Assembly: GCA_003151615.1 (NCBI GenBank)
Contig: PLXZ01000004.1
Location: 173,285-237,284, forward strand
DNA length: 64,000 nucleotides
Direction of reading: 5' to 3'
Source: Candidatus Tayloriibacteriota bacterium
GTDB taxonomy: Bacteria > Patescibacteriota > Minisyncoccia > Phycocordibacterales > PALSA-1337
Shown: positions 9,135-33,628 of the stretch, in pieces
How positions within the stretch are numbered: the stretch's first letter is position 1
Layout of the letters: each line of letters starts with the position of its first letter
Made by a program: the position numbers and the translations under genes
The notes under the pieces: generated by a model
Database searches by the model: none
The model's input: the letters and a program-made list of their open reading frames with translations, nothing else
What the model was told of the DNA's origin: nothing

Positions 9135-9178
9135 TGCTTCTTATGTTGAACGAAGTTAAAACCAATTTACGCAAATAA
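9135..9178 (+). repeat. att junction J1 (outermost), right arm type A
   Basis: tgcttc-ttatgttgaacgaagttaaaacc; in frame LLMLNEVKTNLRK*. Confidence 0.7.
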
Positions 9179-13108: not shown

Positions 13109-13202
13109 TTTCGATCCCTGTTCGGGTATCCCAAAACCACCTTGATATACAATGCTGAAAAAGTGCTCCGCATGTTGAACGAAGTCAGAGCCTGTATTTA
13201 GA
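13109..13202 (+). repeat. att junction J2: left arm X + core TGCTCC (13164-13169) + right arm A
   Basis: 13165-13202 matches 28421-28458 (end of LSR1) at 36/38 nt. Confidence 0.85.
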
Positions 13203-13251
13203 TAATAAAAAAGAGGCGAACCGAAGTTCGCCTCATTGAATGTTAATGTTG

Positions 13252-13626
13252 TCAGTGAGCAAGGTCAGGCCGACCGATGGGAAGAAACGCACTCCCACCG
13301 AGGATCCGGAGCCATAGGTCGGACTTAAGCGGTCCGATCCATCCCTCCGGAATCACACCGTCTGCGATGATGTCCGCCGATATTGCCTTGGCCAACTCGG
13401 CACGTGCTTCCTGGCGGCATCCGTCTTTGCCCGGCCCGGTATCAATTTCGATGCTGATGATCGAGTAGTTCACGTCGAGCGGTCCGACGTCGTGGACACG
13501 AAGCAGGACGTCTTCCATGTTCATCTTCAGATGAGTGGCGACTGCCTTGTGGGCGCTGTCGCGGATTTTTACCACCGCAGCATTGTCAGCACGACTGCGA
13601 TCTCGCCATATGGTTACGAGGGGCAT
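13252..13626 (-). CDS. Hypothetical protein, tautomerase/MIF-like (N-terminal Pro); copy 1
   Basis: MPLVTIW start after GGAG RBS; near-identical to 15515-15889. Confidence 0.65.
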   Translation of the reverse strand: MPLVTIWRDRSRADNAAVVKIRDSAHKAVATHLKMNMEDVLLRVHDVGPLDVNYSIISIEIDTGPGKDGCRQEARAELAKAISADIIADGVIPEGWIGPLKSDLWLRILGGSAFLPIGRPDLAH

Positions 13627-13657
13627 TTTGGTCTCCTTTCTTTTGGTTGCTGGTTGA

Positions 13658-13897
13658 TTAACTTTTGGTTGACTGTGCTTTTTTGTAAGCTTCGTCATCC
13701 GCAACGGTTTCCTTGATGCCGGCAGTAAGGATGTTTAATCCCATAAGTGTCAGGATTAATCCAGACGTAGTGACTGCTTTGAATAAAACGACTATGTTTC
13801 CTGGGTTTGCTGCGTATTGGGCAATATAGGGTGCCGCAACTCCTAAGCAGTATGATCCGATGATCATCAGTGCTCCGACAACTGTTTTAATTTTCAT
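13658..13897 (-). CDS. Small two-helix membrane protein
   Basis: Two hydrophobic segments; first gene of cassette 2. Confidence 0.6.
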   Translation of the reverse strand: MKIKTVVGALMIIGSYCLGVAAPYIAQYAANPGNIVVLFKAVTTSGLILTLMGLNILTAGIKETVADDEAYKKAQSTKS

Positions 13898-14022
13898 ATT
13901 TCGATTTATTTTATTGGTTGAGTTTGTTGTAATCTCTAGTTAGCCGTTTCCCATAAGACACTTAAATGTCCTCTGGGAAACGGCTAACACCAATAGATAT
14001 GTCAAAAAACTACTACCATATA

Positions 14023-14051
14023 ATAGTAGCATAATATATAGAATATGTCAA
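14023..14051 (-). promoter_or_regulatory. Sigma70 promoter TTGACA-17-TACTAT with TG extension (homologue 16321-16349)
   Basis: Consensus boxes a few bp left of junction cores J3 and J5. Confidence 0.7.
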
Positions 14052-14057
14052 ACGTTA

Positions 14058-14097
14058 GCTCCGTATGCTGAACGAAGTTAGAACCTGTTTGAAATAA
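14058..14097 (+). repeat. att junction J3, right arm A
   Basis: gctcc-gtatgctgaacgaagttagaacctgt; LRMLNEVRTCLK*. Confidence 0.8.
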
Positions 14098-14140
14098 AAA
14101 AGACGAACCGAAGTTCGTCTCGTGTAAAGTAATTTACGTT

Positions 14141-14821
14141 TTAACTCACTTCTGGCCATTGTTCGATAAGGGCTTCCAAAAGTTGTTCCATTTCCCACCG
14201 GCCTCCACAGTGAGGGGTAATGATCAATGAATCCAGCACGTTTTGCTCGTTTTTTCTGGATGCTAGCGTATCAAGTTTTCTCTGTTTGTCACAATCACAG
14301 GTGACCCCCACGATGAACGCACGGGGAACATCCTGTCGAAATTGCTGTAGGAATTTCAGGCAGGCATCAAATGCACTGAGGCCCATGTATGACACCAAGA
14401 GAATATTTGTATCTGTGTCAATGTTTCGCGCGATTTTATTTTCAACTTGTGCTTGGGCTTGAGCACCGATTGTTTCTTCGCGCTCAAGATACGTGGCCAT
14501 CATTTCCATGTCTGCGCGAGCCATCGCCGTGGCGCCGAATAAGAGATCAAACGGCGGTCGGTCGTCATGCCGTCCATGTGACAGGGTGATTTGCAGACCC
14601 TGTTTCCCGGGAGTAGCAAGCAGTCCATCTTCATAACTGCCGATGCCGTTGTAGCTCACAAAGATTGCACGCAGTGTTTTTTTATTGCGAATCACATTTG
14701 GCAAGATGTCGCTAATAAATTGGTCAGTGTTTTTTTGTTGGATTAAGGATGTGGTCGGCACGCTGTACCTCCGTAGTTGTTGGTTTTTGTTTAAGGGAGA
14801 AGTAAAATACTTCTCTGACAA
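14141..14821 (-). CDS. Hypothetical protein (cassette 3)
   Basis: 226-aa ORF between promoter (14831-14859) and terminator; start uncertain. Confidence 0.55.
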   Translation of the reverse strand: MSEKYFTSPLNKNQQLRRYSVPTTSLIQQKNTDQFISDILPNVIRNKKTLRAIFVSYNGIGSYEDGLLATPGKQGLQITLSHGRHDDRPPFDLLFGATAMARADMEMMATYLEREETIGAQAQAQVENKIARNIDTDTNILLVSYMGLSAFDACLKFLQQFRQDVPRAFIVGVTCDCDKQRKLDTLASRKNEQNVLDSLIITPHCGGRWEMEQLLEALIEQWPEVS

Positions 14822-14865
14822 TTTGAGTAAAGACTACAATATATGTTTTACTTTGTAAATAGGTG

Positions 14866-14968
14866 GCTCCCCGAACATGAGATTGTTATAACTATATTTT
14901 CCGACTTTGATTACATGAATCGGTTGTACGGACAGCTGTTGTTTATGAAGGCGATGGGGAAATAAAAA
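14866..14968 (+). repeat. att junction J4, right arm B (~100 bp)
   Basis: gctcc-ccgaacatgagattgttataac...gcgatggggaaataa; LPEHEIVITIFSDFDYMNRLYGQLLFMKAMGK*. Confidence 0.85.
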
Positions 14969-15013
14969 TCTCCCCGTAGCTTTCGCTCGTAGGAGAGTTG
15001 TGTTAAAAACAGC

Positions 15014-15361
15014 TTATTTTTTTACGGAAGTGAAAGGTTTCTTATCGGTTGAACCGTTAAGATAATCTATCCACGCGCATTGCCGAAAATAAGTTGAACG
15101 GGCATACATCGTAATGAGTTCCTCGCGCTCGACCGGCGTTTTGGCTTCGTCCAGTTTCTGTCTGGCTTCTGGCGAGAGCGATTCATTATTCATGTGATCT
15201 CGCTCTTCGTCCGTCAACATTGTTAGTCTGCGTTCAAAGTTGAGCCGGTGGAGCAGGTCATCAATACTTTCAATGCGTTCGTCTTTTTTCAATGTGTCAA
15301 GAAATGCGAGCAGCACTTCTTCAGTTTTTTGAAACTCTGCAGTTTTTGTCGGTTCACTCAT
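15014..15361 (-). CDS. Hypothetical protein
   Basis: ORF with its own promoter (15420-15447) and terminator (~14970-14997). Confidence 0.6.
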   Translation of the reverse strand: MSEPTKTAEFQKTEEVLLAFLDTLKKDERIESIDDLLHRLNFERRLTMLTDEERDHMNNESLSPEARQKLDEAKTPVEREELITMYARSTYFRQCAWIDYLNGSTDKKPFTSVKK

Positions 15362-15514
15362 AAAGGTATCTTTCTTCGAAGTGCCGTTTATGGATTTTTG
15401 GCACGGTTTCCTATCCCAAAATCTATTCCTTTTACGGAAAATGTCAATGAATACTCATAAATGAGTATAAAAAAAGGGGCGAACCGAAGTTCGCCCCATT
15501 GAGTGTTGATATTG

Positions 15515-15889
15515 TCAGTGAGCAAGGTCAGGCCGACCGATGGGAAGAAACGCACTCCCACCGAGAATTCGGAGCCACAGGTCGGACTTAAGCGGTCCGA
15601 TCCATTCCTCCGGAATCACGCCATCGGCGACGATGTCCGCCGATATTGCTTTGGCCAACTCGGCGCGTGCTTCCTGGCGGCATCCGTCTTTGCCCGGGCT
15701 GGTGTCAATCTCGATGCTGATGATCGAGTAGTTAACATCTAGCGGGCCGACGTCGTGGACACGAAGCAGGACGTCGTCCATGTTCATTTTCAGGTGAGTG
15801 GCGACTGCCTTGTGGGCGCTGTCGCGGATTTTTACCACCGCAGCATCGTCAGCACGACTGCGATCTCGCCATATGGTTACGAGGGGCAT
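15515..15889 (-). CDS. Hypothetical protein, tautomerase/MIF-like; copy 2
   Basis: 124 aa, 5 amino-acid differences from 13252-13626. Confidence 0.65.
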   Translation of the reverse strand: MPLVTIWRDRSRADDAAVVKIRDSAHKAVATHLKMNMDDVLLRVHDVGPLDVNYSIISIEIDTSPGKDGCRQEARAELAKAISADIVADGVIPEEWIGPLKSDLWLRILGGSAFLPIGRPDLAH

Positions 15890-15929
15890 TTTGGTCTCCT
15901 TTCTTTTGGGTTGTTGGTTGAAGCTTCGT

Positions 15930-16199
15930 CTAATTCAGCAGGGTAATTATACAATCGCCATTTATCATGACGATATTTCCAGTTTTGTCGTCCTGGAAAT
16001 AGTATCCGTTGCTTTGGCTTTCGTTTTCAATCTTGCCCGAGGTGGTCCACTGACCGATGAGTTTGCCTCCTGAATAGAGTTCAACTTTATGTTTTTTGCC
16101 CCAAGCTGAGAAGGCCGCTCGGTTTGCGTTTGAGCAACCGGATAGCATACCCAAACTTAACCCGGCAACCAGTATCATCAGACTAATTTTAAGTTTCAT
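15930..16199 (-). CDS. Small lipoprotein
   Basis: MKLKISLMILVAGLSLGMLSG|C lipobox. Confidence 0.7.
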   Translation of the reverse strand: MKLKISLMILVAGLSLGMLSGCSNANRAAFSAWGKKHKVELYSGGKLIGQWTTSGKIENESQSNGYYFQDDKTGNIVMINGDCIITLLN

Positions 16200-16355
16200 T
16201 TTTTTCCTATTTTTGTAGTTGGTGTGCAAACCAAACTTGGCTGCATCTTTCAAGGCTCGAATAAGCCCTCAAAGACGCAGCCAATTTAATAGGGGAATTT
16301 CAAAAAACTATTACGTAACTATGATAGCATAAGATATAGTATATGTCAAACACGA

Positions 16356-16374
16356 GCTTCCCGAACGGGAATAA
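16356..16374 (+). repeat. att junction J5, short B-like arm
   Basis: gcttc-ccgaacgggaataa; left flank atatgtcaaac...ag matches the J3 left flank. Confidence 0.6.
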
Positions 16375-16449
16375 AAAAGGCCGCGCACTTAAGATGGCAC
16401 GGCCTTGGATATTTTGATTGAGGTTGTTTGACCCGCCTTGAGAAGATTG

Positions 16450-17046
16450 TTAATGGCAACCACCACTGTAGTGATAGACAGCTGCCTTTTCCCCCAACTG
16501 TTCTTGAATGTTACGATCCTCACAGATTGCAATGTCAACAATTTTGCCTTCGTAATGCGCTTTACGATACTCGTTGGCAGGCACGACTTGATATTTATTC
16601 CAAACAATCATTACAAGGTCTGCATTGCCGGTGTATTTATCTTTTTTGCCGAGCCATAGGACCTGATTGAATCCGAGTTTGTTAACCCCCTTTTTTGAAA
16701 GACTATTCTTTTTTGTCATAGTCTTTAGAATCTCTGCGGCAGGTATTTCCTCAGGAAAAAACAAATCCGTCGGGACTGCATTGTCTGGGAGTCGATCCAA
16801 GGTTTTTCCGACAGAAAATTTTTTTTCGCTCGGAACAATCGCATATAGCACAGGAGAGAATGGACTGTCACCATTGTAATCCTCAGGTCGTGACAATGCT
16901 AAGGTTGAATGACCTGCCGCGGGGCCAGTATGATGAATGTTTATCCCGTCGATCACCAGACCGCCGGAAGGTAGTATGAGTCGTTTCACTGGTCCAGATT
17001 GATATGATTTCCGCCAAGATTCAGGGCTTTTAGTTTCGTTTTTCAT
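16450..17046 (-). CDS. Hypothetical protein (cassette 5)
   Basis: ORF downstream of TTGACT-17-TAGTGT promoter (17109-17137). Confidence 0.6.
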   Translation of the reverse strand: MKNETKSPESWRKSYQSGPVKRLILPSGGLVIDGINIHHTGPAAGHSTLALSRPEDYNGDSPFSPVLYAIVPSEKKFSVGKTLDRLPDNAVPTDLFFPEEIPAAEILKTMTKKNSLSKKGVNKLGFNQVLWLGKKDKYTGNADLVMIVWNKYQVVPANEYRKAHYEGKIVDIAICEDRNIQEQLGEKAAVYHYSGGCH

Positions 17047-17146
17047 AAATTCTTTCGAAGTTCTTTGTTTCAAACCCCTAATTAGGTGGTTCAGATTTAC
17101 TGATGTGAACACTACAATATAAATATTAAAGAGTCAATAATTCGTA

Positions 17147-17310
17147 ATGGTTCGAATCCCATTCTGGGTACGAAAAAAGACCCATATAAATGGTTCTTTT
17201 TTCACATGCTCCCCGAACATGAGACTATTATAACCATATTTTCAGACTTAGATTACATGAGTCGGTTGTATAGTCAGCTGTTGTTTATGAAAGCGATGGG
17301 GAAATAAAAA
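17147..17310 (+). repeat. att junction J6: tRNA-3'-like left segment + TGCTCC (17207-17212) + right arm B
   Basis: LPEHETIITIFSDLDYMSRLYSQLLFMKAMGK*. Confidence 0.85.
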
Positions 17311-17358
17311 ACCGCCCAACAAAGTGCCGTTGGGTCGGCTTTTGAATATGGACGGGGT

Positions 17359-17598
17359 TTAACTACGCTCGATGACTTTAGCGGTAACGACTGATGTAGG
17401 AGGTCTTTCAAAAACTGAATCAGGCACTTCAAACTCTACCGTCACGACCGCTCGATCTTTGGGTTGAGACAGGTAGCCTTCACCGTAATGTTCTTGATTA
17501 TGTTCTTCAGATTGTTTCAACAACTCATCAATCCATTGTGAAGCCGCAATAGCCTTGTTGTAACCCTTTGAAACTTCGATATGCGCTGTAACTTTCAT
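17359..17598 (-). CDS. Small hypothetical protein
   Basis: AAGGA RBS; ends before a hairpin. Confidence 0.55.
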   Translation of the reverse strand: MKVTAHIEVSKGYNKAIAASQWIDELLKQSEEHNQEHYGEGYLSQPKDRAVVTVEFEVPDSVFERPPTSVVTAKVIERS

Positions 17599-17638
17599 TG
17601 ATAGTATCCTTTCTTTTTGTTTCTAGTTTAAATACTGG

Positions 17639-17971
17639 TTAGCAACAACCGCCACCGCCTGAGCAATGGCCTCCAGTTGCCCGAATGTATCGGCGAAGCG
17701 AGTCAGTGTCATAATCCTCACCGCCGATTGCTCCTGCATATACTTGTATTTTAGCATCAGGGGCTTGCAGATGTTGGACGCTGTGTTTGTAGGGTGTCTG
17801 CTTTATAAGCGACTTCCAGTTATCCAAGAGTTTTTCTTTATCATCAGACCATGTGACAAAGTTTATTTCACCCGTCCCGCATTTACAGGAGAGAGAATGT
17901 TGATATCCACGTAGGTAGGCGTTCACCTCTGGACTCCTTCCACAACGGCAGGGAATTGGTGTCATATTCAT
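17639..17971 (-). CDS. Small zinc-ribbon protein (phage Lar-like N-terminus)
   Basis: PCRCG...CKCG; promoter 18000-18027. Confidence 0.5.
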   Translation of the reverse strand: MNMTPIPCRCGRSPEVNAYLRGYQHSLSCKCGTGEINFVTWSDDKEKLLDNWKSLIKQTPYKHSVQHLQAPDAKIQVYAGAIGGEDYDTDSLRRYIRATGGHCSGGGGCC

Positions 17972-18030
17972 AATTTTGTTTTCAAGTTGTCTGATTCAAA
18001 GATTACCTCTAACTGATTAAAAGTCAATCA

Positions 18031-18188
18031 ATTTCGATCCCTATTCGGGTATCGCAAAACCACGTTGATATACAAGGCTGAAAAAAGTGCTCCCCGAACA
18101 TGAGATTGTTATAACCATATTCTCGGATGTGGATTACATGAATCGACTGTATGGTCAGCTGTTGTTTATGAAGGCGATGTCAGTATGA
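18031..18188 (+). repeat. att junction J7: left arm X + TGCTCC (18088-18093) + right arm B
   Basis: Left arm like J2, right arm like J4/J6; LPEHEIVITIFSDVDYMNRLYGQLLFMKAMSV*. Confidence 0.85.
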
Positions 18189-18346
18189 CTTGCAAGGACT
18201 TGCTTTTATACCATATATGTGATATAATTAAGCCAGTAATCCTTAATCGTATGGTTAAGTCGTTTCGGTACCCTTTGGGTATGTGAAATAAGGGGGTATG
18301 TGTTTTCCTCCACTAAGACACAAGTTCATTGGAAAGAAATTAACGT

Positions 18347-18880
18347 ATGTTAAAAGACTACATCATCATCAACGGCCCTCCGAAGTTCGAACTCATGCTC
18401 GCTTTATTCCATACTGCGAATATTGTGTTCAAAACTGAATGCGGTCAGGTCATCACTGTAATGGTAACCCAGGTCAAAAAACTTAACGACGATGGCCACG
18501 ACGCTTGGAATATCAGGGGCTTCATCATTTTGGATGACGGAGACTATCGGAAAGATAGTCACGAATGCAGAGCCATTTTCTCCAGCAAAAACCGTAAAGG
18601 TAAGCTGACAGACCTCGGTCTGAAAAACATGAAGTTCGAGCCTGAATACCTTGAACGTCTGTCTGATGACCAACTTCGGAAGAGGGTCGCTTCTGACCAG
18701 AAAATTGCAGAACATTTCAAGGCTATACTCGATCAATACATGTGCGGACTCAATCCCCGTGATCGGTTGATTGCGGAAGTTATTGCCGCGCAGGAGTTGG
18801 CCTTGGTGACGATGGATATTCAGTCCAAACACAGCAAATATACTAATGACCGTTCACGTAACACTGCGATTGCAGCGTAA
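18347..18880 (+). CDS. Hypothetical protein (cassette 7)
   Basis: TTGCTT...TGnTATAAT promoter ~18199-18228; terminator 18902-18934. Confidence 0.65.
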   Translation: MLKDYIIINGPPKFELMLALFHTANIVFKTECGQVITVMVTQVKKLNDDGHDAWNIRGFIILDDGDYRKDSHECRAIFSSKNRKGKLTDLGLKNMKFEPEYLERLSDDQLRKRVASDQKIAEHFKAILDQYMCGLNPRDRLIAEVIAAQELALVTMDIQSKHSKYTNDRSRNTAIAA

Positions 18881-18941
18881 GTGCGACAGACATTTGTAAT
18901 TAAAACGGCGACCAGAAATGGTTGCCGTTTTTTTATTACTT

Positions 18942-19030
18942 GAGTTCGATCCCTGCTCGGGTGCTCGAAAACTGTGTTGATACACAAGGTTGAAAAAAGT
19001 GTTCGCCGAACATGAGAGGAAGATACTCTG
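18942..19030 (+). repeat. att junction J8: left arm X + degenerate core (tgttcg) + B-like arm start
   Basis: gagttcgatccctgctcgggtgc...ttgatacacaaggttgaaaaaagt-gttcg-ccgaacatgag. Confidence 0.75.
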
Positions 19031-19042
19031 ACGCATTAGCCT

Positions 19043-19627
19043 TTAACCAACTTGTCTGATCCAATCTCGGATAAACATGCCCACTCGTTCAATATCAGTC
19101 GGTGCTAGTTCACCACTATGCATGATAATATTTCTTGATTTTTCCAAAGTTTCAATTATTTGCTTTGCCCACTCCACTTTACCAACGTGCACTTCAAAAA
19201 ATTTCCAATTTTCAGGCTTAGCCATGATAGAGATGAGGTCTCCAAATTCAGTGTAATAAATCATTGAATCACCCCTAGCGGTAAGCCAGCGAACATCTTT
19301 TTCTGACTTTTTTCTATTCTCTGCATTAGTCCTGATTTCTTTCTTTACACATAAATCCCACCAATTTTCACCTTTTTCTTCAAGAAGTTTTTTAGCAATA
19401 AACTCTCTTACTGAATTTTCAAAGGAACAGATAGCAGTATACACAACTGCCATTCGTCTCGATTTTACAACGAATTCCTCGTCCATAAGCGGAAGACCTA
19501 GTCGTTTAGATGTTTCTGCTTCCCATACTTCGGAGAAATCACCCTTTGACTTTCTACCAGCCTTATCTAAAGCCTCTTCGGTTAAAAGCCCCCTAAAGGT
19601 AAAAGAATATAATCGGTTAGAATCCAT
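19043..19627 (-). CDS. Swt1-like HEPN domain protein (putative RNase/defence)
   Basis: FENSVREFI...WW...YTEFGDL...RNIIMH (RxxxxH). Confidence 0.8.
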   Translation of the reverse strand: MDSNRLYSFTFRGLLTEEALDKAGRKSKGDFSEVWEAETSKRLGLPLMDEEFVVKSRRMAVVYTAICSFENSVREFIAKKLLEEKGENWWDLCVKKEIRTNAENRKKSEKDVRWLTARGDSMIYYTEFGDLISIMAKPENWKFFEVHVGKVEWAKQIIETLEKSRNIIMHSGELAPTDIERVGMFIRDWIRQVG

Positions 19628-19628
19628 A

Positions 19629-20279
19629 TTAAAACAGATGTTTTTTAAGGCTTTTAAATAGTGCGTCGTATACAGCGGCATCCCTTGATTCCGGTAGGTG
19701 AATTTGGATATTGTAATGCAATTCTGTCTTACGTAGTTTCCCACCGACACTATCCTCGTCTGTGTCTTCCTGTGCGGCAGGTGGAGTCTCTTTTGCGGAC
19801 TCAGGCTTTTGATTGTCATTCTTCTCTTTACCGCCCTGAACTTTTTTTGCTGTATTACTCCACTCAGCATAAGCGGCAAGAGTCACGAATGTATTAGCCA
19901 TTAAATGCAAAACCTTATCTGAAATTTTACCTTGAGTTAATGTTCTAAGTTTGTTTTTGACTTCTGACTGCGTAAGTTCGTTTGCCTTTGTGTTAACAGC
20001 GAATAAATCCCCATATGCTACAGTAATCGCATTTGCCAAGACTTGTTTAGATTGAGATTGATCTAAAAAGTTGAAATATATTTCTGTTGGTACAGCATTG
20101 GCATCTAGAAACCCCAATCCTTTAAGTAGTCCTATGTACAGACGGTCATTTGTACTTTTAAACTCAAGACTTTCTAGGAATTTCTGCGTAAAGGTCTCAG
20201 GCGCTTTCGCCGTAATTAGACTGTTAAAAAATGACTCAAGATTTTTTGTCGTAACCAAATATGAGGGTGTAAGTGCCAT
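19629..20279 (-). CDS. DUF5343-family protein
   Basis: PETFTQKFLESLEFKSTNDR...LKGLGFLD; C-terminal YNIQIHLP. Confidence 0.8.
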   Translation of the reverse strand: MALTPSYLVTTKNLESFFNSLITAKAPETFTQKFLESLEFKSTNDRLYIGLLKGLGFLDANAVPTEIYFNFLDQSQSKQVLANAITVAYGDLFAVNTKANELTQSEVKNKLRTLTQGKISDKVLHLMANTFVTLAAYAEWSNTAKKVQGGKEKNDNQKPESAKETPPAAQEDTDEDSVGGKLRKTELHYNIQIHLPESRDAAVYDALFKSLKKHLF

Positions 20280-20426
20280 AAAAGTATTGTTATTTATATA
20301 GCGGAAATATACCATGTACAAATAAAAAAACAATACGGTAAAATTAAGTCAATTTACCTTATTTTTCGCTTCTATCGCTCAAGAATAAATGGTATAATAC
20401 AGGGTAGAAAGTGAACTATCTGTCGA

Positions 20427-20665
20427 TTTTTCCTTAAATGCCGTTTCTGATAAAAATCAAATAGATTCATTATCAAAGTTTGCTAATCAAAAATTAAAAT
20501 CATCATGAAGAAAACAATCATTCTCAATAGAAGTGCTGTAACAGGAAAAATAGTTACAAAGGCGTATGCGAAGAAGCATCCGCGCACTACCGAACGAGAG
20601 GTCTACAAAGTTAAGAAATAAGTACATAAATGATATCGCTGTCGGAAACGGCATTTAGGGAAAAA
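20427..20665 (+). repeat. 26-bp inverted repeat enclosing the 38-aa ORF
   Basis: 20427-20452 pairs with 20640-20665; the three non-Watson-Crick positions are all G-U on the + transcript. Confidence 0.8.
20505..20621 (+). CDS. 38-aa basic peptide (not in the ORF track)
   Basis: MKKTIILNRSAVTGKIVTKAYAKKHPRTTEREVYKVKK; TGnTATAAT at 20390-20398. Confidence 0.65.
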   Translation: MKKTIILNRSAVTGKIVTKAYAKKHPRTTEREVYKVKK

Positions 20666-20724
20666 TAACATAAAGACATACTTTCCATTAGGCTTTTGCA
20701 GAGGAATGCCAGCACGAGCGATTT

Positions 20725-21249
20725 CTACGCGTTGAGCGCAGTATTTGCGTAGTAGTTTAAGTCTTCTAGCGTAATACCTGCTCGCCGTATGATTAGATAC
20801 TTGTCCTCTGATGAAAAATAGGTCTTCCGAAGCATTCTTGAAAACGTCCGTGCCTTGTATGTCGGTGCTTCATATTTCAGTCGGCAACAGACACGACAGA
20901 GGGGTGATTCAAGAGTGCTGTATTCGTAGAGGTGCTTTGCTCGTCTTTCACAACCATTGCAGATAAAGTAAAAAATGAAGCCACGCCTTAGGTTTGAGGG
21001 TACGTAGTCCACTTTTTGTTCGTTCCAATATGGAATGCCGTCATTGAAAACAGCTATTGATTTAAATGTCGTATATCGTGGATTGTTCAATAGCCCTTTC
21101 ATATACGAAACTTCGCCCTCATGGTTTGTGTTGAGTATACGACCTTCTTTTTCTCTGATGTTTATTTTGAAGTTTCTTACATAGTCGCCAATAGTGAAGC
21201 GCAGATATCCGCTACTGTTAAATATTTTTTTGTGTTGAGAGATCCTCAT
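20725..21249 (-). CDS. Zinc-finger protein, homologous to 42665-42997
   Basis: YFICNGCERRAKHLY...CRVCCRLKY. Confidence 0.65.
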   Translation of the reverse strand: MRISQHKKIFNSSGYLRFTIGDYVRNFKINIREKEGRILNTNHEGEVSYMKGLLNNPRYTTFKSIAVFNDGIPYWNEQKVDYVPSNLRRGFIFYFICNGCERRAKHLYEYSTLESPLCRVCCRLKYEAPTYKARTFSRMLRKTYFSSEDKYLIIRRAGITLEDLNYYANTALNA

Positions 21250-21316
21250 AATCGTTAATGAACGCTAATGAGTTTAATATTATTCGGATCTGATTTTTTA
21301 CACAACCGACAGGAAG

Positions 21317-22060
21317 TTAGTATATGTTTGAAGGAAAAACACCCGTATACTGATTACCAAAATCATCAACGCAAGTAACCTTAAAATCATATAATGAGCC
21401 AGCTATGTCCACACCTTCACCGTTGGGACTGGTTCCAAAAGTGATAGTATGTTTTTCTGTGGCGGTGTTCGCATAGGTAGTTTGGCTATAAGGCACATCT
21501 GCGCTACCACCAGCCCATGTCCATGTGCATGTTGAGGTGTTTCCGCTCGGTATTGATAGAGAAAAGCCATACTGGCCGTTATAAAATTCCGATACTTGTA
21601 CAGTCGTCGCATTAACTTTTGTATTAGGCTGAACGTCAGTAACAGGATTGTCCGTAGCTGTATTTGAATTCGTAATCGGTGACGGAGAATAATTTTCGGA
21701 GTTAACGATAGAAATTGTTAAAACTATAAGGGCAAATACTCCCCAGAAAATGTATACGGGTCTGAATCTATTTTTCTGTCGGACGACTGTAGCATAAGGT
21801 TTTGATGATTGATTGTCATCATCTGTATCGAAATCTTCTTGCTGTGTAGTGTTAAATGTCTGGTCATAGTGTGTTTTGCTTTTTTCATTAGAAAGTACGC
21901 GGTATGCTTCGTTGACCTCTTTGAATCTTTTTTCGTTACCATTATTTGTGTCAGGGTGATATTGGAGCGCGAGTATCCGATAGGCTCTTTTTATATCTTC
22001 AGTGGAAGCGTCACGAGGAATTCCTAGAATTTCGTAGTAGTCTTTTTTCATGGTTTTCAA
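21317..22060 (-). CDS. Membrane-anchored DnaJ (J-domain) protein
   Basis: DYYEILG...HPD motif...EAYRVLS; one TM helix. Confidence 0.85.
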
Positions 22061-23058
22061 TTACCGAACATATATGATAATTGGTACTGATCTGCGATTT
22101 CTCCTGCTGAATTGATTTGTCCCAGAATACACCCGTTTGTTAGTGAAACAGCCGTACTACCTTGCATACCGTTTGGTATTGCTATGTTGGTTGAATCATA
22201 ATATCCTGACGCACTTGTGATATTGCCAGTAAGCATTAGACTGGTTGAATTTGGTGGCCAGCCAACAACCACTACGGAATCACCGACTGAGCCGCGTGTT
22301 GAGCAATAGTTTTGTAGATTTGTCGTAAGGGCATGAGTTGCGAGGTAATTATTTGATGTATCAATCATGATTTGTGCAAAATCAATACCCGCATTACTGA
22401 CGAGATTTATTATTTGACTTTGACCGATGTCAGAACCGACGGTAAAGGTTGATAGGCCTCCTCCATAAAGTGAAGCTCCTGCTGGGAAAGAAACAGTACA
22501 CGAGCCAGGCAGTATTTGATAACCAGCATAAGACGTATTTGTTACTGCTCCTAGAACTGTATTTATAAAGTAATTTCCACCTGTATACTGGCCAAGAAGA
22601 CCATTTCCGCTTTCTGAAAAAAGAACGTTGCCATAACGGTTATAGTAATTGCAAGTAAAGAAAGCGAGTTCTGGGGAGAGTTTGGTAGCGAGTATATTCG
22701 CAGAATAATTATTTTGTGGCTGAACAGAATTTGTTGATGGTAGAATTGCGTTTGTTGTATTTTTAGGAGTATTAACTTGACCAGTTAAATCAGCGTTGAT
22801 TGCGGTGCGTGTTAAAGAGCCGACATATCCCGTTGGCGATATACTATTTGCAGACTGGAAATTTTCTACAGCCTGTTGCGTCAATGAGTAGAAATTTCCT
22901 GTTGCCGAGCCTTGAAGGTATCCGTTACTAATCAAAAACTGTTGAAGTTCAGTTACTTGTTCTCCAGTTGAACCATAGCTTAAATTAGAGTTGATTGAGG
23001 CATATGACACAAGAGGAGCGGCGAGAAATATGACTGTTCCTATTATTATTTTTTTCAT
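22057..23058 (-). CDS. Secreted protein: peptidoglycan-binding domain + degenerate trypsin-like domain
   Basis: [17 protein letters not shown]...AVENFQ...TGYVGSLTR; [11 protein letters not shown]...GMQGS. Confidence 0.7.
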
Positions 23059-23060
23059 AT

Positions 23061-23792
23061 TTATTGCGATATATTCATCGTATTAGTAACTGCACCCAAA
23101 GATTGAAGTTGTCCCTCAAGTGCGTTTCGATACGCTGTTATGGTGCTATGAAGCGTTGATGTTGAAGTCGTTGGTTGTAGGCCAGCGGTAGCTGTTACAT
23201 ACCACTCTCCGAGCGTATTAGGAAAAAGAGGCGTGCCGTCTAATCTCATGGAGCTATTGAGAACAGAAAGAAGTGTTGTGGTTCCGGTGAGGCCATTAAC
23301 TGCAGTATTGTTACCATTAAATTGCAGAGGCGCATTGTCTATATCGAAATCAATCTGTGTGAGGGCGGCTAATTCTTCGTTGATGCCCTGAATCTTTGCG
23401 TTATTTGTTGCGCTTGCCGTGGTAGCTGACTGTGTATTCGTGCTAGCGGAGCTTAATTGCCCTTGGCATAAGGCGTACTGCGTTTGCGCCTTTGCAAGCT
23501 GTTGCGTAAGGCTTGTTATGTCCGCTTCTTCCGTCGGATCCTTAACCGTCTGCGTCGTCGTTTTCGTTATGACTGTAGGAGTTTGCGATGTCGTGCTTGC
23601 AAGTTCGACCTGTAGCTGTGATATTTCAGTGTTCTGCTGATTGATTGTTTCGGTAAGGGCCACTGTTTCCGATGATGAAGCGGTTACTGAAACGGAGCTT
23701 TGACTAAACCATGTCGTTGGATTCCACCAAGCGGCGAAAGCGATTGACGGAATGAATGCTAGGCCTATGGGTGCGATAAAATATTTTTTCAT
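23061..23792 (-). CDS. Secreted coiled-coil hypothetical protein
   Basis: Signal peptide followed by AWWNPTTWF. Confidence 0.65.
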   Translation of the reverse strand: MKKYFIAPIGLAFIPSIAFAAWWNPTTWFSQSSVSVTASSSETVALTETINQQNTEISQLQVELASTTSQTPTVITKTTTQTVKDPTEEADITSLTQQLAKAQTQYALCQGQLSSASTNTQSATTASATNNAKIQGINEELAALTQIDFDIDNAPLQFNGNNTAVNGLTGTTTLLSVLNSSMRLDGTPLFPNTLGEWYVTATAGLQPTTSTSTLHSTITAYRNALEGQLQSLGAVTNTMNISQ

Positions 23793-23863
23793 TTGATTTT
23801 TTATTATTAAATTTCAACCGACGTTATCCTTATATTAAATACTACGCTTCAAAAAATAAACCT

Positions 23864-24433
23864 CTACGTCGGCAAGGTCTTGTTTTTTGAAAGCCAATTT
23901 TCCATACGATTTTCAAATGTCATAAGCTCCCACTGGGCTAAACTCGCGTTCTCATTTTTCGCTTTCTTCTTGCAAATATCCATGGCCTTTATGTACTCTT
24001 TTTCTGTAAATTCACCTTTTGTCCATTTTGGGCCTTCCCAAGCAATTTTATTTAGAATAATTGAATCTATCACGCAGTGCAGAGGTTCATCTTTTTTGAA
24101 ATTAAACACCCATAGGTATTTAAGATAGAGATTGAGAAGTTTTTGTACTCTGCCGAAAGTGATTTTGTTGTTATTCAAAATGTCGATATATACCGATTTG
24201 TTTATTTTTTGTTGAAAGTCATTGAGGAGTTCAATATACTCTTCGTCCGTATTAGGAATTTTTTCTGAAAATTTTTCAAGCTGTTCCGATAAATAATCTC
24301 TAAATTTCATCCGCTTATTTGGGTCGGCGTTCAGTTTGTAAGTGGAGTAGCCTCTTATTAACGCCGCTTGGAAAACCAAAGAAGAGATTTCTTTTTTGGC
24401 GAATTCTATTTTTTTGAATTCTATTGATTGCAT
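23864..24433 (-). CDS. Hypothetical protein
   Basis: FGRVQKLLNLYLKYLW...HCVIDS; start immediately after the structured RNA. Confidence 0.6.
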   Translation of the reverse strand: MQSIEFKKIEFAKKEISSLVFQAALIRGYSTYKLNADPNKRMKFRDYLSEQLEKFSEKIPNTDEEYIELLNDFQQKINKSVYIDILNNNKITFGRVQKLLNLYLKYLWVFNFKKDEPLHCVIDSIILNKIAWEGPKWTKGEFTEKEYIKAMDICKKKAKNENASLAQWELMTFENRMENWLSKNKTLPT

Positions 24434-24434
24434 A

Positions 24435-24579
24435 CAAAAAGCCCACCACAGGTAGAGGCCTAAGCCTCTCATATCAGTTTCCCAATATGGCGAGTTAAGC
24501 GACCCTATGATGGGTTTTTTATGCTTAACTCGACTTTCTTCACCATGCCATTGGATTACTCAAATGGTTTAGGCTACTT
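24435..24579 (-). ncRNA. Unrecognised structured RNA, copy 1
   Basis: Homologous to 38432-38577 with compensatory changes in several stems; upstream promoter and terminal U-tract. Confidence 0.75.
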
Positions 24580-24752
24580 CTAACATATTCAGTTGTGGCC
24601 TAATCATACAATAAACGCCAATATCTGCAATGGTGATTAAATCAGAGCAAGCGCAGGACAAAGTTCTTTTTGTGAGGTAGTATATTTCTATGCGGACACA
24701 GGTTTACAGCTGTTAGAGCCGAGTTTTAAGCGAAAGAGCCACCTATAAAGAT

Positions 24753-25343
24753 ATGAAAAAGTTATCAAATAAACCCATTTCGGATCCGTCGCACGACACG
24801 GAGAAAAAAGATAACAAAATTGAAGCGGTGGTTTTAATTGCCTACGTACGTGAGACATATGGGGAACCAAGGCTTGCTCTTTATGTATTAAACTCAATTA
24901 TCGGTAAACGTATTAAGAAATTTACTAAAGAGAAGTGGGGTATAGCGAAATTTATCGCAGAAAGAACTTCCTATATTTCTGTCGAAGAAGATTATGATGT
25001 TGATGTTGAAAAAGGGGATTGGGGTCTTCCAGTAATGATGGGCGCGGCACGACCGATAAATGTTGATATTCTAGATAAAAATAATTTATCATTGCTTAGA
25101 CAGGAAGTTAAGACTTTTTTTGACAACATATCAAATTTTGTTTCAAGCACTAATAGACCAAGATGGGTTTGCCAAAAATGTGGCAGATTTTTAGGAAAAG
25201 AACTTTCGTCTGCTAGCGAAGTGAAAAAATTATTGAGGGATTTTAGTATGGGAAAATATCACAAGTGTCGTTCATGTCCAACAAATAATTACTTCACTTT
25301 CAATTCTGACGGTATCGTTTTCCACAGTAAACCGATTGACTAA
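24753..25343 (+). CDS. Hypothetical protein with C-terminal zinc ribbon
   Basis: CQKC...CRSC. Confidence 0.6.
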   Translation: MKKLSNKPISDPSHDTEKKDNKIEAVVLIAYVRETYGEPRLALYVLNSIIGKRIKKFTKEKWGIAKFIAERTSYISVEEDYDVDVEKGDWGLPVMMGAARPINVDILDKNNLSLLRQEVKTFFDNISNFVSSTNRPRWVCQKCGRFLGKELSSASEVKKLLRDFSMGKYHKCRSCPTNNYFTFNSDGIVFHSKPID

Positions 25344-25723
25344 TACGGTATTTCGTGTATAGTAGCACCAGCTCATTAACGTCTGAAATATCTGAAGGCA
25401 CGGGATGTGTCCGTAGGAAATTGTATCTGTTTTGCAGGTAACTCACAGAGGTGGGCTGTAGAAGCCAGAACAATGAATAGCAGTCTTGACGACTGGTGTT
25501 TATTGTTTTGGCTTTTTTCGTTCCAAAAAACGAATTATCAAAAATAAACTACGGACTTTTCTGAGCTTTAACAGCTTTAGAAAACTACAATTACAAAAGA
25601 AGAAAATAACAAGCCCACCCAAGATGCGGCTCGTCAGTTTGCATCTCTGATAGTGGCACTCATTCAGGAAATTAGCTTCAGCGAAAAAATAGAAAAATCG
25701 GACGTTAGAAATTAAAAAATCCC

Positions 25724-26203
25724 ATGAATCCAACAAACATTGAAAGTAAAATAGAACAGCCTCAAAAATCAAAAATTATAAGTTCTCCACAATTATCGAA
25801 TCAAATGCCAGCCATAAAAGAAAGCGACATCGGTTGGCTTGAACACATGGACATTGACGTCATGCACTTCAGCTTTCTCTCGGGCGTCGGAAGCCATTTC
25901 GGACTTAAAACCCTCGACGTCGCGATTATTTGTTGCATTTGGATTTTTTCCAAACGTAAAGGGTTCTGTTACTTGAGTAAGGAGAGAATGGCCGTCTTAG
26001 TCTGCACGAATCCAGTGAGCCTCTATCAGCATCTTGGAAGTCTTAAAAAAAAGCAATATATTGAGCAATCAGAAAAAACAATGGGCAGAGTCACTTTGTT
26101 ACGCCTATCTCCTGAAGTCCAAGATTACGTAAACCGCACAAAATCGGAAATCGACAAACGAAGAGAACGGAACAAAAAATCGAGCAAAAATAATGGGTAC
26201 TAA
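25724..26203 (+). CDS. Winged-HTH protein, replication-initiator N-terminal-like
   Basis: GFCYLSKERMA...SLYQHLGSLKKKQYI; direct repeats at its 3' end. Confidence 0.55.
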   Translation: MNPTNIESKIEQPQKSKIISSPQLSNQMPAIKESDIGWLEHMDIDVMHFSFLSGVGSHFGLKTLDVAIICCIWIFSKRKGFCYLSKERMAVLVCTNPVSLYQHLGSLKKKQYIEQSEKTMGRVTLLRLSPEVQDYVNRTKSEIDKRRERNKKSSKNNGY

Positions 26204-26433
26204 AGAATCCGTGGGAGTAATACTAAAGAATCTTTAGACCATAATGAATCCCATATTGAATTAAATAATAATTATTGTATCAACCCTCAAATGCGGATCC
26301 GAATGCGATAAAAATGCTCCCCTAAATGCATGAATTCAATCACGGATCCGTTCCGTCGGTGCGCATAAGTCTGGTTGATTTACCTCTCGACAGTTTATAA
26401 AATAAAAACATCAATATTATCTACTGTAAAGAG

Positions 26434-26622
26434 ATGTATCAAAAACCCATAGCCAAAATCAACGAGATAAAAGCCTTGCTCAAAGCAGGTCAAATCTCAT
26501 TCGATGAGGCCAAGGCGTTAGCGTCTCCGCTCATTAAGGAAATGGAAGCCTCTGCGGAAAAGGTTGCGAAGAAATTTCGCCGACCTGCTCCAAAGTTCAG
26601 CTTCACTGCTTTAATGAGATGA
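26434..26622 (+). CDS. Small hypothetical protein
   Basis: 62 aa, translationally coupled to the next gene. Confidence 0.55.
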   Translation: MYQKPIAKINEIKALLKAGQISFDEAKALASPLIKEMEASAEKVAKKFRRPAPKFSFTALMR

Positions 26623-26822
26623 AAAAATCTATCAAAAAGTACGAAGTCTCATTAACAGAAATTAAGCACGGACATGTCGTCGTCGAAGCTAAAAGCTACG
26701 ACGAGGCTACCCGAATAGCATTACAAAATTACCACCAAGGCGAAGTAACTATGGGCGATACGCCCGACATTGAAACGAAAGCGGTCAAAGAAATACCGCC
26801 CATAGGATTTTTGCCTCACTAA
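26619..26822 (+). CDS. DpnD/PcfM-like small protein
   Basis: KKYEVSLTE...VVVEAKSYDEA...Y..GE. Confidence 0.6.
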   Translation: MKKSIKKYEVSLTEIKHGHVVVEAKSYDEATRIALQNYHQGEVTMGDTPDIETKAVKEIPPIGFLPH

Positions 26823-26837
26823 AAAATATATAAAATT

Positions 26838-28457
26838 ATGAAAAAGAAGCAAGTAAATGAAAAACCATTAGAAGACATAAAATACGCCGCCAGTTATATC
26901 AGAGTGTCGACCCAAGACCAGCTCAACGGGCTTTCAATTGAGGTTCAAGAAAAACTGTGCCAACGAAGAGCCGAAGAAGCAGGGTACAAAGTATCTGAAG
27001 TCCTTGACGACGGAGGTATTAGCGGACACAACGACAATCGCCCAGGATTGCACCGCTTGAAAGAATTGATTACGACAAAAAAGATAACGGCTATAGTCGC
27101 TCTATCGTCCGAACGCCTTTTCCGCAACACCCGCTCGCATCTCGACTTTATGGAGTGCGTCTTTACTTACGGTGTTCATCTCCTTTACGTCAATGGGGCA
27201 ACACCTGAAAACAACGCAAGTTCAAGGATGCAGGACACAGTTCTTGCAAGTATGAATCAGTTTTATAGAGATCAAATATCTGACAAAGTGAAAGGTGTCC
27301 TCTATGAAAAGGCCAAAATGGGCTATTACCCCTCTCGACCTCCAGCAGGATATATGAATGTTCCAAACCCAGACAAGAATGCAGAACGCATGGCGCAAAA
27401 GCTCGTAGTGCCAGACCCAAACACAGCTCCATTCATCAAAGAAATGTTTACGCTCTACGCCACAGGAAATTTCAACGTCTACGACCTTTGCGACATTATG
27501 TACGAAAAGGGCTTGCGAAGCAGAAAGGATGGCAAAATATCGCCAAGTAGACTTCACGATATGCTGAGAAGCCGTTTTTACATCGGTGAGCTTGTATGGG
27601 GGCCAATCAGCAACATAGAGGGGAAACACGAGCCTATCATTGATGAAGCGGCCTTTAATCAAGTGCAAATGATTTTAACAGCACGCAATCACCACGCCTG
27701 TCGGCGGCGGAAATACCAATGGCTTTTAAACGGCTATCTCTACTGCTACAAGCACGACAACCGTTATACGGCCGAATGGCACACAATCGGAAATAGACGC
27801 ATTGCATATTACCATTGCGCCAACAAAAGCGGTTGCGGCAAGTATTCCGAACAAGTAGACCTAGAAGCTAAAGTTGCCGAAAAATTCAAGGACTTGGAGT
27901 TTAGTCCTGCGTTTATTAAAGAGGTGATCGCCGAAGCAAAGGCGACATTCAACGAACAGCGAAAGGGCTACGACAAAAAGAAACAAGGCCTCATCAATCA
28001 GCGTACCGCTTTCGACCGACGGCGCAAGGTTATGGAAGACAAACTTTTCGACGGCGTAATCGGCGATGACGACTTCAAAAAGAACCGAGCCGAAGTTATG
28101 GCTGAAATACAACGGATTGAGGTGAAGCTATCGGACTTGGAAAAAAGCAGGGAGGTCAGAGTTGATGAAGCGGAGCAGATACTTCGTTTTACGAAGAATA
28201 TTTACGACGCATATCAAAAGGCATCGCCAGATCTCAAGCGGCACTATTTAGGCTTCTTTTGGTCACGCTTTGAGGTAAGTGATAAGGTTATAATAACGTC
28301 TACTCCCTCGCTTCTTTTCGCTGAACTTTTGAAGCTAAAACACGCTATTTTTAGAAGGTCAGAAACGCAAAAACACAAAGGACTGAATAGATCTAACAAA
28401 GTTATATTAGGAGGTCTACGGCTCCGCATGTTGAACGAAGTCAGAACCTGCATTTAG
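26838..28457 (+). CDS. Large serine recombinase LSR1
   Basis: YIRVSTQDQ catalytic Ser; ERLFRN; recombinase domain (HEPIID); zinc ribbon + coiled coil; last 11 aa encoded at and beyond the core at 28421. Confidence 0.95.
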   Translation: MKKKQVNEKPLEDIKYAASYIRVSTQDQLNGLSIEVQEKLCQRRAEEAGYKVSEVLDDGGISGHNDNRPGLHRLKELITTKKITAIVALSSERLFRNTRSHLDFMECVFTYGVHLLYVNGATPENNASSRMQDTVLASMNQFYRDQISDKVKGVLYEKAKMGYYPSRPPAGYMNVPNPDKNAERMAQKLVVPDPNTAPFIKEMFTLYATGNFNVYDLCDIMYEKGLRSRKDGKISPSRLHDMLRSRFYIGELVWGPISNIEGKHEPIIDEAAFNQVQMILTARNHHACRRRKYQWLLNGYLYCYKHDNRYTAEWHTIGNRRIAYYHCANKSGCGKYSEQVDLEAKVAEKFKDLEFSPAFIKEVIAEAKATFNEQRKGYDKKKQGLINQRTAFDRRRKVMEDKLFDGVIGDDDFKKNRAEVMAEIQRIEVKLSDLEKSREVRVDEAEQILRFTKNIYDAYQKASPDLKRHYLGFFWSRFEVSDKVIITSTPSLLFAELLKLKHAIFRRSETQKHKGLNRSNKVILGGLRLRMLNEVRTCI

Positions 28458-28458
28458 A
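28421..28458 (+). repeat. att junction J9, right arm A (supplies the LSR1 C-terminus LRMLNEVRTCI*)
   Basis: gctcc-gcatgttgaacgaagtcagaacctgcatttaga. Confidence 0.85.
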
Positions 28459-28534
28459 CCTAAGATCAGCTTTCTAGGAGGCCTTTCCACAGATCCGAGT
28501 ACCGCATATTGGTTATCTCTGTTAAAATACTGGT

Positions 28535-29620
28535 ATGAGCAGTAATGCACTACTATCTTTATCAAAGACAAATAAAGTTTCGGAGCAAAATAAATTTGTG
28601 GCAGCTCAACCGATGCCAACAATTGATATTGAAAACAGGCGATATATCGGTAGCAAAGCAAAACTTTTAGATTGGATTTTTGATCACATAAAAAAAGAAT
28701 GCAAAGGAAATAGCTTCGCTGATATTTTTGCCGGTACAGGCGTTGTTTCCGCTAGGGCAGCGAGATCATTCAACAAGATTATCTTGAACGATATTTTGCA
28801 TTCGAACTTTGCTTCATATCAGGGATTTTTTGCGCAGGAAAAATATGATAGGGAAAAAATATTTAATTTTGTAGCACATTACAATTCTCTAGATGCTAAG
28901 GATATCAAGCATACATTTTTTTCAAAAGCATTTGGCGGAAAGTATTTCAATGTACCTGCGGCAAAACTTATAGGATACATTCGCGAAGACTTAAATAAGA
29001 GAAAATCAGAATTAAATAACAAAGAGTATCATATTTTGTTAACATCTTTGCTATATTCAGCTGACAAAATTGCGAATACCGTAGGACATTACGAGGCATA
29101 TTTTAAGAAAAGTATTTCAGATCGTAAATTTATTTTTAGACTAATCGAACCTTTGATCAAAGCGGGTAGAGTTTCTATTCACAGAGAGGACGCCAATGAA
29201 TTGGCAAAGAGCTTGAAAGCTGACATTGTTTACATTGATCCGCCTTATAATTCAAGACAGTATAGTCGCTTCTACCATGTCCTAGAAACACTCGCTCTTT
29301 GGGACAACCCCAAGCTTTTTGGTGTTGCACTTAAGAGGCCAGAGGAGAATATGAGCGAATATTGCAGAAACAATGCGGTCAATGCATTCGCTGATCTAAT
29401 TGGTAAACTAAATGCTAAGTATATTGTTGTTTCCTACAATAATACCTATAACTCAAAAAGCTCATCGTCGAGAAATAAGATCGAGCTTGAAGATATAAAG
29501 AGCATTTTGACCAGTAAGGGTAAGACAAAGATTTTCAAAAAAAGTCACCAATTCTTTAACGCAGGTAAGACAGACTTCAACGATCATCAGGAATGGCTTT
29601 TTATCACGGAAGTATTATGA
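28535..29620 (+). CDS. DNA adenine methyltransferase (D12 class)
   Basis: RYIGSK, DIFAGTGVV, DPPY; true start may be 28613. Confidence 0.9.
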   Translation: MSSNALLSLSKTNKVSEQNKFVAAQPMPTIDIENRRYIGSKAKLLDWIFDHIKKECKGNSFADIFAGTGVVSARAARSFNKIILNDILHSNFASYQGFFAQEKYDREKIFNFVAHYNSLDAKDIKHTFFSKAFGGKYFNVPAAKLIGYIREDLNKRKSELNNKEYHILLTSLLYSADKIANTVGHYEAYFKKSISDRKFIFRLIEPLIKAGRVSIHREDANELAKSLKADIVYIDPPYNSRQYSRFYHVLETLALWDNPKLFGVALKRPEENMSEYCRNNAVNAFADLIGKLNAKYIVVSYNNTYNSKSSSSRNKIELEDIKSILTSKGKTKIFKKSHQFFNAGKTDFNDHQEWLFITEVL

Positions 29621-30525: not shown

Positions 30526-30526
30526 C

Positions 30527-32128: not shown

Positions 32129-32207
32129 TCATAAACTCGGATGCTACTTAATTTTATTGACCACATAAACAGGAAGTTCTTGAGCTGGAAGGTATAATAA
32201 TAAAAAA

Positions 32208-32654: not shown

Positions 32655-32697
32655 AAAAGAGCTGAACAAATGCAGGACTATATGATATCCTTAGCGC

Positions 32698-33413: not shown

Positions 33414-33415
33414 TT

Positions 33416-33592: not shown

Positions 33593-33628
33593 AAAATCTA
33601 ATCCTTTTTTTTGAAAAGTACGAAACAG

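Follow-up and report, generated by a model that had tools for sequence, protein, structure and literature searches.

The locus described here raises the question of what becomes of the C-terminus of a large serine recombinase (LSR) when the attachment (att) site of its element lies inside the LSR gene itself. The stretch analysed, called the window below, comprises 64,000 nucleotides of the 923-kb, five-contig genome of a Candidatus Tayloriibacteriota bacterium (contig PLXZ01000004.1, positions 173,285 to 237,284, forward strand). Beside the 3′ end of a tRNA-Asn gene it carries an array of two LSR elements and seven integrase-less units of 0.8-4 kb, with ten GCTYC-core junctions, one of them degenerate (9136, 13165, 14058, 14866, 16356, 17208, 18089, 19001, 28421 and 44747). 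Both LSR genes, LSR1 and LSR2, read through the core: attP lies within the last LSR codons, and integration displaces the end of the gene, here called the tail, to the far end of the element. One type of tail, tail B, evolves past its att arm as a protein, to judge from its codon changes. We think it probable that the split integrase obtains its tail from whichever junction is used, with cassettes hitch-hiking and tails staying under selection. The two LSRs, their target and the junctions are, in window positions:

26838..28457, plus strand: LSR1, 539 residues, ending GGLR/LRMLNEVRTCI and stop; left arm with GTTATA at -20.
42981..44759, plus strand: LSR2, likely start ATG at 43062; tail-less, ending RPTL/LRE and stop in tRNA-Asn antisense.
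45091-44747, minus strand: tRNA-Asn(gtt), its anticodon loop interrupted by a 272-nt intron (ARAGORN with introns).
44747-44751: core GCTCC at the 3′ end of tRNA-Asn, the target and B′ arm, with motif TCGAAC at nt 17-22.
19001..28425: element 1, 9.4 kb, with a broken B-type arm at the far end and LSR1 at the tRNA side.
28421..44751: element 2, 16.3 kb, with tail A at the far end, and LSR2.
28421..28457, plus strand: junction of P1 and P′2, placing tail A (LRMLNEVRTCI) in frame on LSR1.
9136..9178, plus strand: diverged core and tail A (LLMLNEVKTNLRK, then stop), the most distal junction; 4-kb unit with purO and pyrB.
13165..13201, plus strand: core and tail A (LRMLNEVRACI, then stop); 0.9-kb cassette.
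14058..14097, plus strand: core and tail A (LRMLNEVRTCLK, then stop); 0.8-kb cassette.
14866..14965, plus strand: core and tail B (32 residues), far end of a 1.5-kb cassette; junction without a start codon (TGG).
16356..16374, plus strand: B-type arm with an internal deletion (LPERE, then stop), att motif gone.
17208..17307, plus strand: core and tail B (32 residues), far end of a 0.9-kb cassette; junction creates an ATG.
18089..18188, plus strand: core and tail B (32 residues), far end of a 0.9-kb integrase-less cassette.
19001..19031, plus strand: truncated B-type arm (FAEHERKIL, then stop), att motif gone.

The array is real and no artefact. Public contigs identical to the window cross the junctions at 13165, 14058, 16356, 18089 and 19001, in runs that may include the source sample. 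A clean empty tRNA-Asn site was not obtained among five relatives, each of which carries different content there. The tRNA-Asn gene was found only with the intron option of ARAGORN switched on and was missed without it; intron-bearing tRNAs like this one also occur elsewhere (L072, L295). The initial annotation, made from the letters alone, had quoted tail peptides in the frame of both LSRs, and all of them are present, tail A at 9136, 13165, 14058 and 28421 and tail B at 14866, 17208 and 18089. The range it gave located the arms but left 9136 and 44747 outside, and its statement that every arm reads to a stop codon, true but trivial, had left out the two broken B-type arms (16356 and 19001).

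LSR1 and LSR2 share 22% identity, and both carry the serine catalytic domain PF00239 (E 5.6e-26 for LSR1, 2.4e-19 for LSR2). LSR1 has PF07508, and positions 225-450 of its family profile match the C-terminal domain of the A118/LI integrase (4kis, E 5e-7); LSR2 has no PF07508 match, but its residues 5-517 match phrog_95 (E 1.4e-45). The LSR1 tail begins at residue 529, beyond the end of the 4kis match at profile position 450, and therefore probably lies outside the canonical fold. By this comparison it probably hangs beyond the fold on a poorly conserved linker, like engineered fusions of a recombination directionality factor (RDF). The displaced part, 11-35 residues long, has no family match.

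The window fits one swap, in which the far end of element 1 kept a broken B arm and LSR1 would have come to end in tail A of element 2. In LSR1-family elements the far end normally bears the element's own tail B, as at four other loci (L031, L069, L125, L137), and on C5 of the source genome an 11.4-kb element has tail B at its far end and an LSR, 52% identical to LSR1, that ends at tRNA-Lys(ttt) in the same frame. In all, three LSRs of the source genome besides LSR1 and LSR2 enter the 3′ ends of tRNA-Tyr, tRNA-Ala and tRNA-Lys (C2 111192-112736, C2 ~327850-329320 and C5 94632-96197), and C5 has another two, shorter LSRs that end without reaching a tRNA; searches with tails A-D found no own tail for the elements at tRNA-Tyr and tRNA-Ala. 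The proposal of the initial annotation that each insertion rewrites the C-terminus of the LSR to its left thus suits LSR1, but among the 120 listed homologues of each LSR such ends are a minority. In the LSR1 family 10 of the 120, LSR1 included, end in a tail (A in five, B in three, C in two), and in the LSR2 family 14 of the 120 do (A in four, B in one, C in four, D in five), by profiles that were partly built from these same proteins. Most tail-less listed homologues stop within, or read into, tRNA antisense; the ends were scored as tail or no tail only, a finer split of the tail-less ones being unreliable.

The tails are shared between families. Tails A-D end full-length LSRs of families that are ~22% alike, and in both families there are members with tail A, with tail B and with tail C. 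Tail B had been expected to turn up on complete LSRs elsewhere, and it does (P0104, P0107, P0054, P0145, L105 and L180); the bodies that end in it are 20-29% alike. At the DNA level, L105 and L180 hold the only two LSR-fused copies among 147 B tails, the other 145 being unfused, and where a tRNA-side unit has an LSR near the core, the LSR frame is the tail frame in five of six. A search of cluster representatives with the tail-B profile gave 117 matches, namely one unrelated 3705-residue repeat protein and 116 short proteins, six of which have LSR-like upstream parts, a poor gauge of full-length fusions. The targets are 3′ ends of tRNA-Asn, -Lys, -His and -Arg. The LSR homologues bear Patescibacteria names, and GTDB matches to the tail-B pattern belong to the Candidate Phyla Radiation (CPR) wherever a taxon is given. 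At one locus (L081, 12578-12753) tail C runs straight into a second core with tail D, with no cargo between.

The right arms are dual-coding: nt 1-28 form the attP half-site and the remainder encodes peptide. Counted from the core G, the tRNA arms carry TCGAAC at nt 17-22, and tails A and B carry (T/C)A(G/T)AAC at nt 22-27. In serine integrases the zinc-ribbon (ZD) motif is located 5 bp farther from the centre in attP than in attB, according to the accessible text of PMC3783163, and the tails show this outward shift relative to the tRNA arm. The motif is encoded within tail residues V-R-T and I-I-T. All 24 tails that were found by hidden Markov model (HMM), outside the search pattern, have ATA at codon 8, while Ile at codon 10 uses all Ile codons. 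Codons 1-9 show few synonymous changes (proportion of synonymous differences, pS, ~0.11-0.13), with a ratio of nonsynonymous to synonymous rates (dN/dS) of 0.6-0.9 in the window and in a large array and of 0.3-0.4 in genomes G204 and G367. Tail A (11-13 residues) has a pS of 0.45 and a nonsynonymous proportion, pN, of 0.14 over 11 codons. Because codons 1-9 are att arm, tail A says little about protein selection, and its conservation is largely that of a DNA att motif. Protein-level selection, which the initial annotation had claimed for all tails, is therefore upheld for tail B, while tail A is mostly att motif.

For tail B we assembled 147 distinct, non-independent junctions from 21 of 401 genomes of the order, from 59 GTDB and 112 metagenome stretches and from flank HMM matches; the search pattern fixes residues 8-17, and pooled tests were thus limited to codons 18-30. 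The three 32-codon B tails of the window, described from the start as differing mainly by synonymous changes, have over codons 10-30 a pS of 0.53, a pN of 0.052 and a dN/dS of 0.058. Over the same codons dN/dS was 0.057 in an 11-copy array and 0.047 in G204 (n = 3); G367 is saturated and gave 0.15 over codons 18-30. In 48 disjoint pairs of orphan tails dN/dS was 0.092 over codons 18-30 and 0.48 over codons 1-6, so that the larger sample, like the window, lies far below 1. Conceivably, the frame could be incidental to an extended binding site conserved purely as DNA. This holds for nt 1-28, and hence for most of tail A, but past nt 28 third positions are near saturation while residues are kept, and the tails end full-length LSRs in frame; for tail B this explanation is largely refuted, and we give it hardly any credence overall. 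Past the att arm, tail B thus has the substitution pattern of a protein. Its module is hydrophobic and probably helical, although a hydrophobic-moment scan had no peak at 100 degrees, leaving an amphipathic helix unsupported. Searches with tail B gave a best E of 1.3 against PDB sequences, nothing useful in PHROGs and only unnamed clusters in the Atlas.

The 11-copy array lies on JAKAKW010000002.1 at ~15.5-41 kb (L092-L101, L134, L252). Its tail-B sites number at least 11, left modules of two kinds alternate along it, the cargo resembles that of cassettes, and it ends at tRNA-Lys(ttt). All its tails are mutual nearest neighbours (dS ~1.3). For none of the window's three B tails does the nearest neighbour lie within the window; all three lie in other loci.

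Selection had also been suggested on cassettes that have no integrase, and two homologous, equal-length pairs of LSR-less cassettes, among seven pairs that share cargo, support it. In L131/L152 (both 1371 bp, Fic cargo with pS 0.33 and pN 0.016) the tail has five synonymous changes to one nonsynonymous (neutral P 0.001-0.005), and in L106/L171 it has four to one (neutral P 0.005-0.013). Such units are common: an LSR match was present in 8 of 48 tRNA-side units ending in tail B and absent from 40, and Pfam searches of 58 of the 62 listed tRNA-side open reading frames (ORFs) of the LSR-less units gave varied cargo and no serine recombinase.

The mechanism that we consider probable would run as follows. 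Integration, as the sequences show, splits the gene, leaving the body by the tRNA with an end in antisense and sending the last 11-35 codons, which are both P′ arm and C-terminal module, to the far end. Cassettes would then move in cis. A neighbouring LSR element would recombine, through its tRNA-side site, with a junction lying farther out, and given that left arms are for the most part arbitrary, this partner could be any junction. The resulting circle would take up the intervening cassettes, and the LSR on it would end in the tail of the outermost one. A cassette would spread only if its tail yields a working integrase, which would keep the tail under selection, and later excision at a near junction would leave the cassette behind. 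Tandem insertion would likewise graft a neighbour's tail, as with LSR1. Reconstitution on the excised circle is more likely the main route, and rewriting by insertion the minority one. Most likely, the tail would make the integrase on the circle more active or determine its direction, so that the integrated form, without a tail, would be damped.

Several findings, collected here and in the next paragraph, weigh against this reading. Homologous integrase-less pairs total only two, and in one of them, L106/L171, the tail is more diverged than the cargo (pS 0.35 against 0.047) and may therefore have been exchanged. Stops interrupt codons 1-27 in ten of the 147 B tails, dN/dS is 0.28 for the private changes of 67 tails, and two of the five B-type arms of the window are broken. 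These numbers would suit an explanation in which tails are selected on live LSR elements alone, the cassettes are dead deletion remnants with fast turnover, and the synonymous differences reflect the diversity of their parents: ten stops are about the number expected at a neutral divergence of 0.02, the left arms of some cassettes (L153, L186, L265) are what is left of an LSR 3′ end, and the P motif described below is mostly missing from cassette left arms. Yet homologous LSR-less cassettes of the same length keep the tail at gene-like pN, tail clades are array-specific with dS above 1 and common left modules, and one left module recurs across genomes beside differing tails and cargo. We regard this explanation as unlikely, though it deserves to be kept in mind; some tails are dead and most are not. 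Six of the ten premature stops fall at codon 18 (L097, L139, L168 and, in three copies, L196).

The left arms bear on how a cassette could move. A mirrored P-type motif stands at -20 in the left arms of five of six LSRs. Among cassette left arms it is rare (3 of 36 and 2 of 142), and the cassettes are without a canonical left P arm. Two left modules recur in the window:

13109..13164, plus strand: module X1, with TTCGA ~56 nt before the core, a tRNA-3′-like stretch and an inverted-repeat spacer.
13999..14057, minus strand: left arm X2, also at 16297-16355.

X2 is, by eye, a predicted sigma70-type cassette promoter (TTGACA-17-TACTAT). X1, with its T-loop-like TTCGA, is also present at 17148-17207, 18032-18088 and 18944-19000; it adjoins cores in other genomes too, tRNA-Asn included, beside different tails and cargo, and its conservation suggests that some cassettes perhaps carry their own site. 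The initial annotation's route would then apply: each non-autonomous cassette excises as its own circle (X joined to P′), uses an LSR in trans and inserts on the tRNA side of a resident LSR, donating its tail. The abutting of X1 to cores at many loci, the 40 of 48 tRNA-side units without an LSR and some units with identical left arms at both ends (L067, L106) speak for it; but the X1 motif lies ~56 nt from the core and not 20 nt, most left arms are arbitrary (promoters, terminators), and chromosomal fusion is seen for just two of 147 B tails. This route seems to us decidedly unlikely. Exchange in cis, which we favour, must also accommodate the tRNA-side unit of the 11-copy array, which has a tyrosine recombinase and no LSR, and the lack of any PF07508 match in one array-bearing genome, G422. 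No circle or excision joint was found in contigs of four sequencing runs, a result uninformative on absence, and a viral collection held no circular form (no match to the tail-B pattern, no locus for LSR2, and one for the LSR1 family, integrated at tRNA-His). Finally, small genes upstream of LSR1 could encode an ordinary directionality factor; a PHROGs search assigned these small ORFs to no family.

The tail might alternatively act as a free peptide of 30-35 residues, translated from an ATG, GTG or TTG formed at the junction, which would serve LSRs without a tail in trans as a minimal directionality factor would. A start codon is formed at 71 of 142 orphan junctions, where stops are fewer (2 of 71, against 8 of 71 elsewhere), and what is essential in the SPbeta RDF is one short helix, according to the accessible text of PMC11722253. 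Junctions with no tail behind them, however, form start codons just as often (14 of 36, P 0.27), dN/dS is alike in pairs without a start (0.079 against 0.085), and Shine-Dalgarno-like words precede just 2 of 71; the chances of this explanation are slim.

The cargo of the window is varied. Element 1, a relative of the C5 element whose LSR ends at tRNA-Lys, carries Swt1-HEPN with DUF5343, DnaJ, a PG-binding gene and small backbone genes. Its Swt1-like HEPN gene and DUF5343 (19042-20333) are a likely defence pair, and L180 has a homologous block behind a tail B that is intact and fused to an LSR. Element 2 contains DNA methyltransferases, an AlwI-like endonuclease, a terminase-small-like gene, NUDIX and LSR2; two D12-class adenine methyltransferases and the endonuclease lie directly behind its tail A (28535-32128). 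The genes purO and pyrB (9223-11750) lie within the most distal unit, and in L311, of the same genus, purO is within 2.5 kb of tRNA-Asn, so that 9136-13165 may therefore be older, partly fixed DNA. A gene for 124 residues with a terminator is present twice (13207-13659 and 15470-15922, 92% over 300 nt), the second time without a preceding att core. A common hairpin terminator at 11830-11862, 13209-13241, 14096-14128 and 15472-15504 follows tail A and also closes core-less genes.

The closest known system is that of the Dehalococcoides ssrA islands, in which the gene of the LSR DsiB overlaps att at its 3′ end and 15 of 31 tandem islands, called cis-mobilizable, have no integration module (McMurdie et al. 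2011, PMC3146451, accessible part). The authors suggested, as speculation, that DsiB may work only when it is on the circle or when an adjacent island supplies the 3′ fragment; DsiB ends are divergent, and the accessible part of this account holds no selection test on the tail. The window shares with these islands an LSR overlapping its own att and tandem units, many without an integration module. The islands differ in being larger, in their tmRNA (ssrA) target with a T-loop crossover and in a second small recombinase, DsiA; here the targets are tRNA 3′ ends, the cassettes are of 0.5-2 kb, four tail families are common to unrelated LSRs and purifying selection was measured. Among the 36 window ORFs scanned, which do not include every short ORF, none belonged to a DsiB-type six-gene module (DsiA, ParB, Mom). 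The split gene and the idea of a switch were thus already proposed for DsiB in 2011; new here are the measured selection and the sharing of tails across families.

In the accessible part of PMC8371274, archaeal SSV-type suicidal integrases also have att in the gene, which is split on integration; the intact gene is a control of directionality, and chimeras arise by exchange of halves. Those are tyrosine recombinases whose displaced half is catalytic, whereas here the family is serine and the catalytic, recombinase and zinc-ribbon/coiled-coil domains all stay with the body; the likeness is that att lies within the gene of the integrase. The integrase of Myxococcus phage Mx8 is likewise a tyrosine integrase; its attP reportedly lies in the 3′ end of int, and integration is said to replace the C-terminus and lower activity. 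We know of no cassette array or shared tails for Mx8. Integrons string together cassettes of one or two genes that bring accessory cargo, at repeated sites specific to the lineage. The arrays described here, with up to 11 B sites in one of them, resemble integrons in this, but the sites are protein-encoding half-sites of serine integrases and the cassettes have their own promoters and terminators; no phage-integrase Pfam match, as IntI would give, occurred among the 36 window ORFs. For the LI/A118 and SPbeta serine integrases, joining an RDF to the C-terminus through a short linker switches direction (accessible parts of PMC3783163 and PMC11722253). Domain order and the 5-bp ZD shift are the same; there, att is outside the gene, the RDF is separate and both left arms are defined, while here the left arm is largely arbitrary. 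Tycheposons accrete in tandem at tRNAs, with no tails described in the accessible text (bioRxiv 10.1101/2020.12.28.424599). The accessible parts of PMC5861418 and bioRxiv 10.64898/2026.06.07.730663 add nothing further on this system, and no account of it in CPR was found in a literature search that covered papers outside subscription. The main text of Durrant et al. (PMC10083194) does not contain the word tRNA; its supplements could hold such LSRs.

A bolder interpretation, which we offer as a tentative possibility, is that CPR bacteria run integron-like cassettes on serine integrases, each site encoding an interchangeable C-terminal control module. A grafted tail would activate or redirect unrelated LSR bodies, a cassette would supply part of its own mover, and tails would tune differently. 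The locus offers a case, open to testing, in which recombination rewrites its own enzyme, and its dual-coding arm separates DNA-level and protein-level constraint cleanly within 100 bases. The tail may provide control of direction where one att arm, the DNA downstream of the tRNA, cannot be fixed. For integrase mining, about nine in ten listed homologues, read from integrated genomes, are without their real C-terminus, and screens may test truncated enzymes. For CPR bacteria with their tiny genomes, the proposed exchange would account for the stacking of accessory genes at tRNAs, in arrays that reach at least 11 sites.

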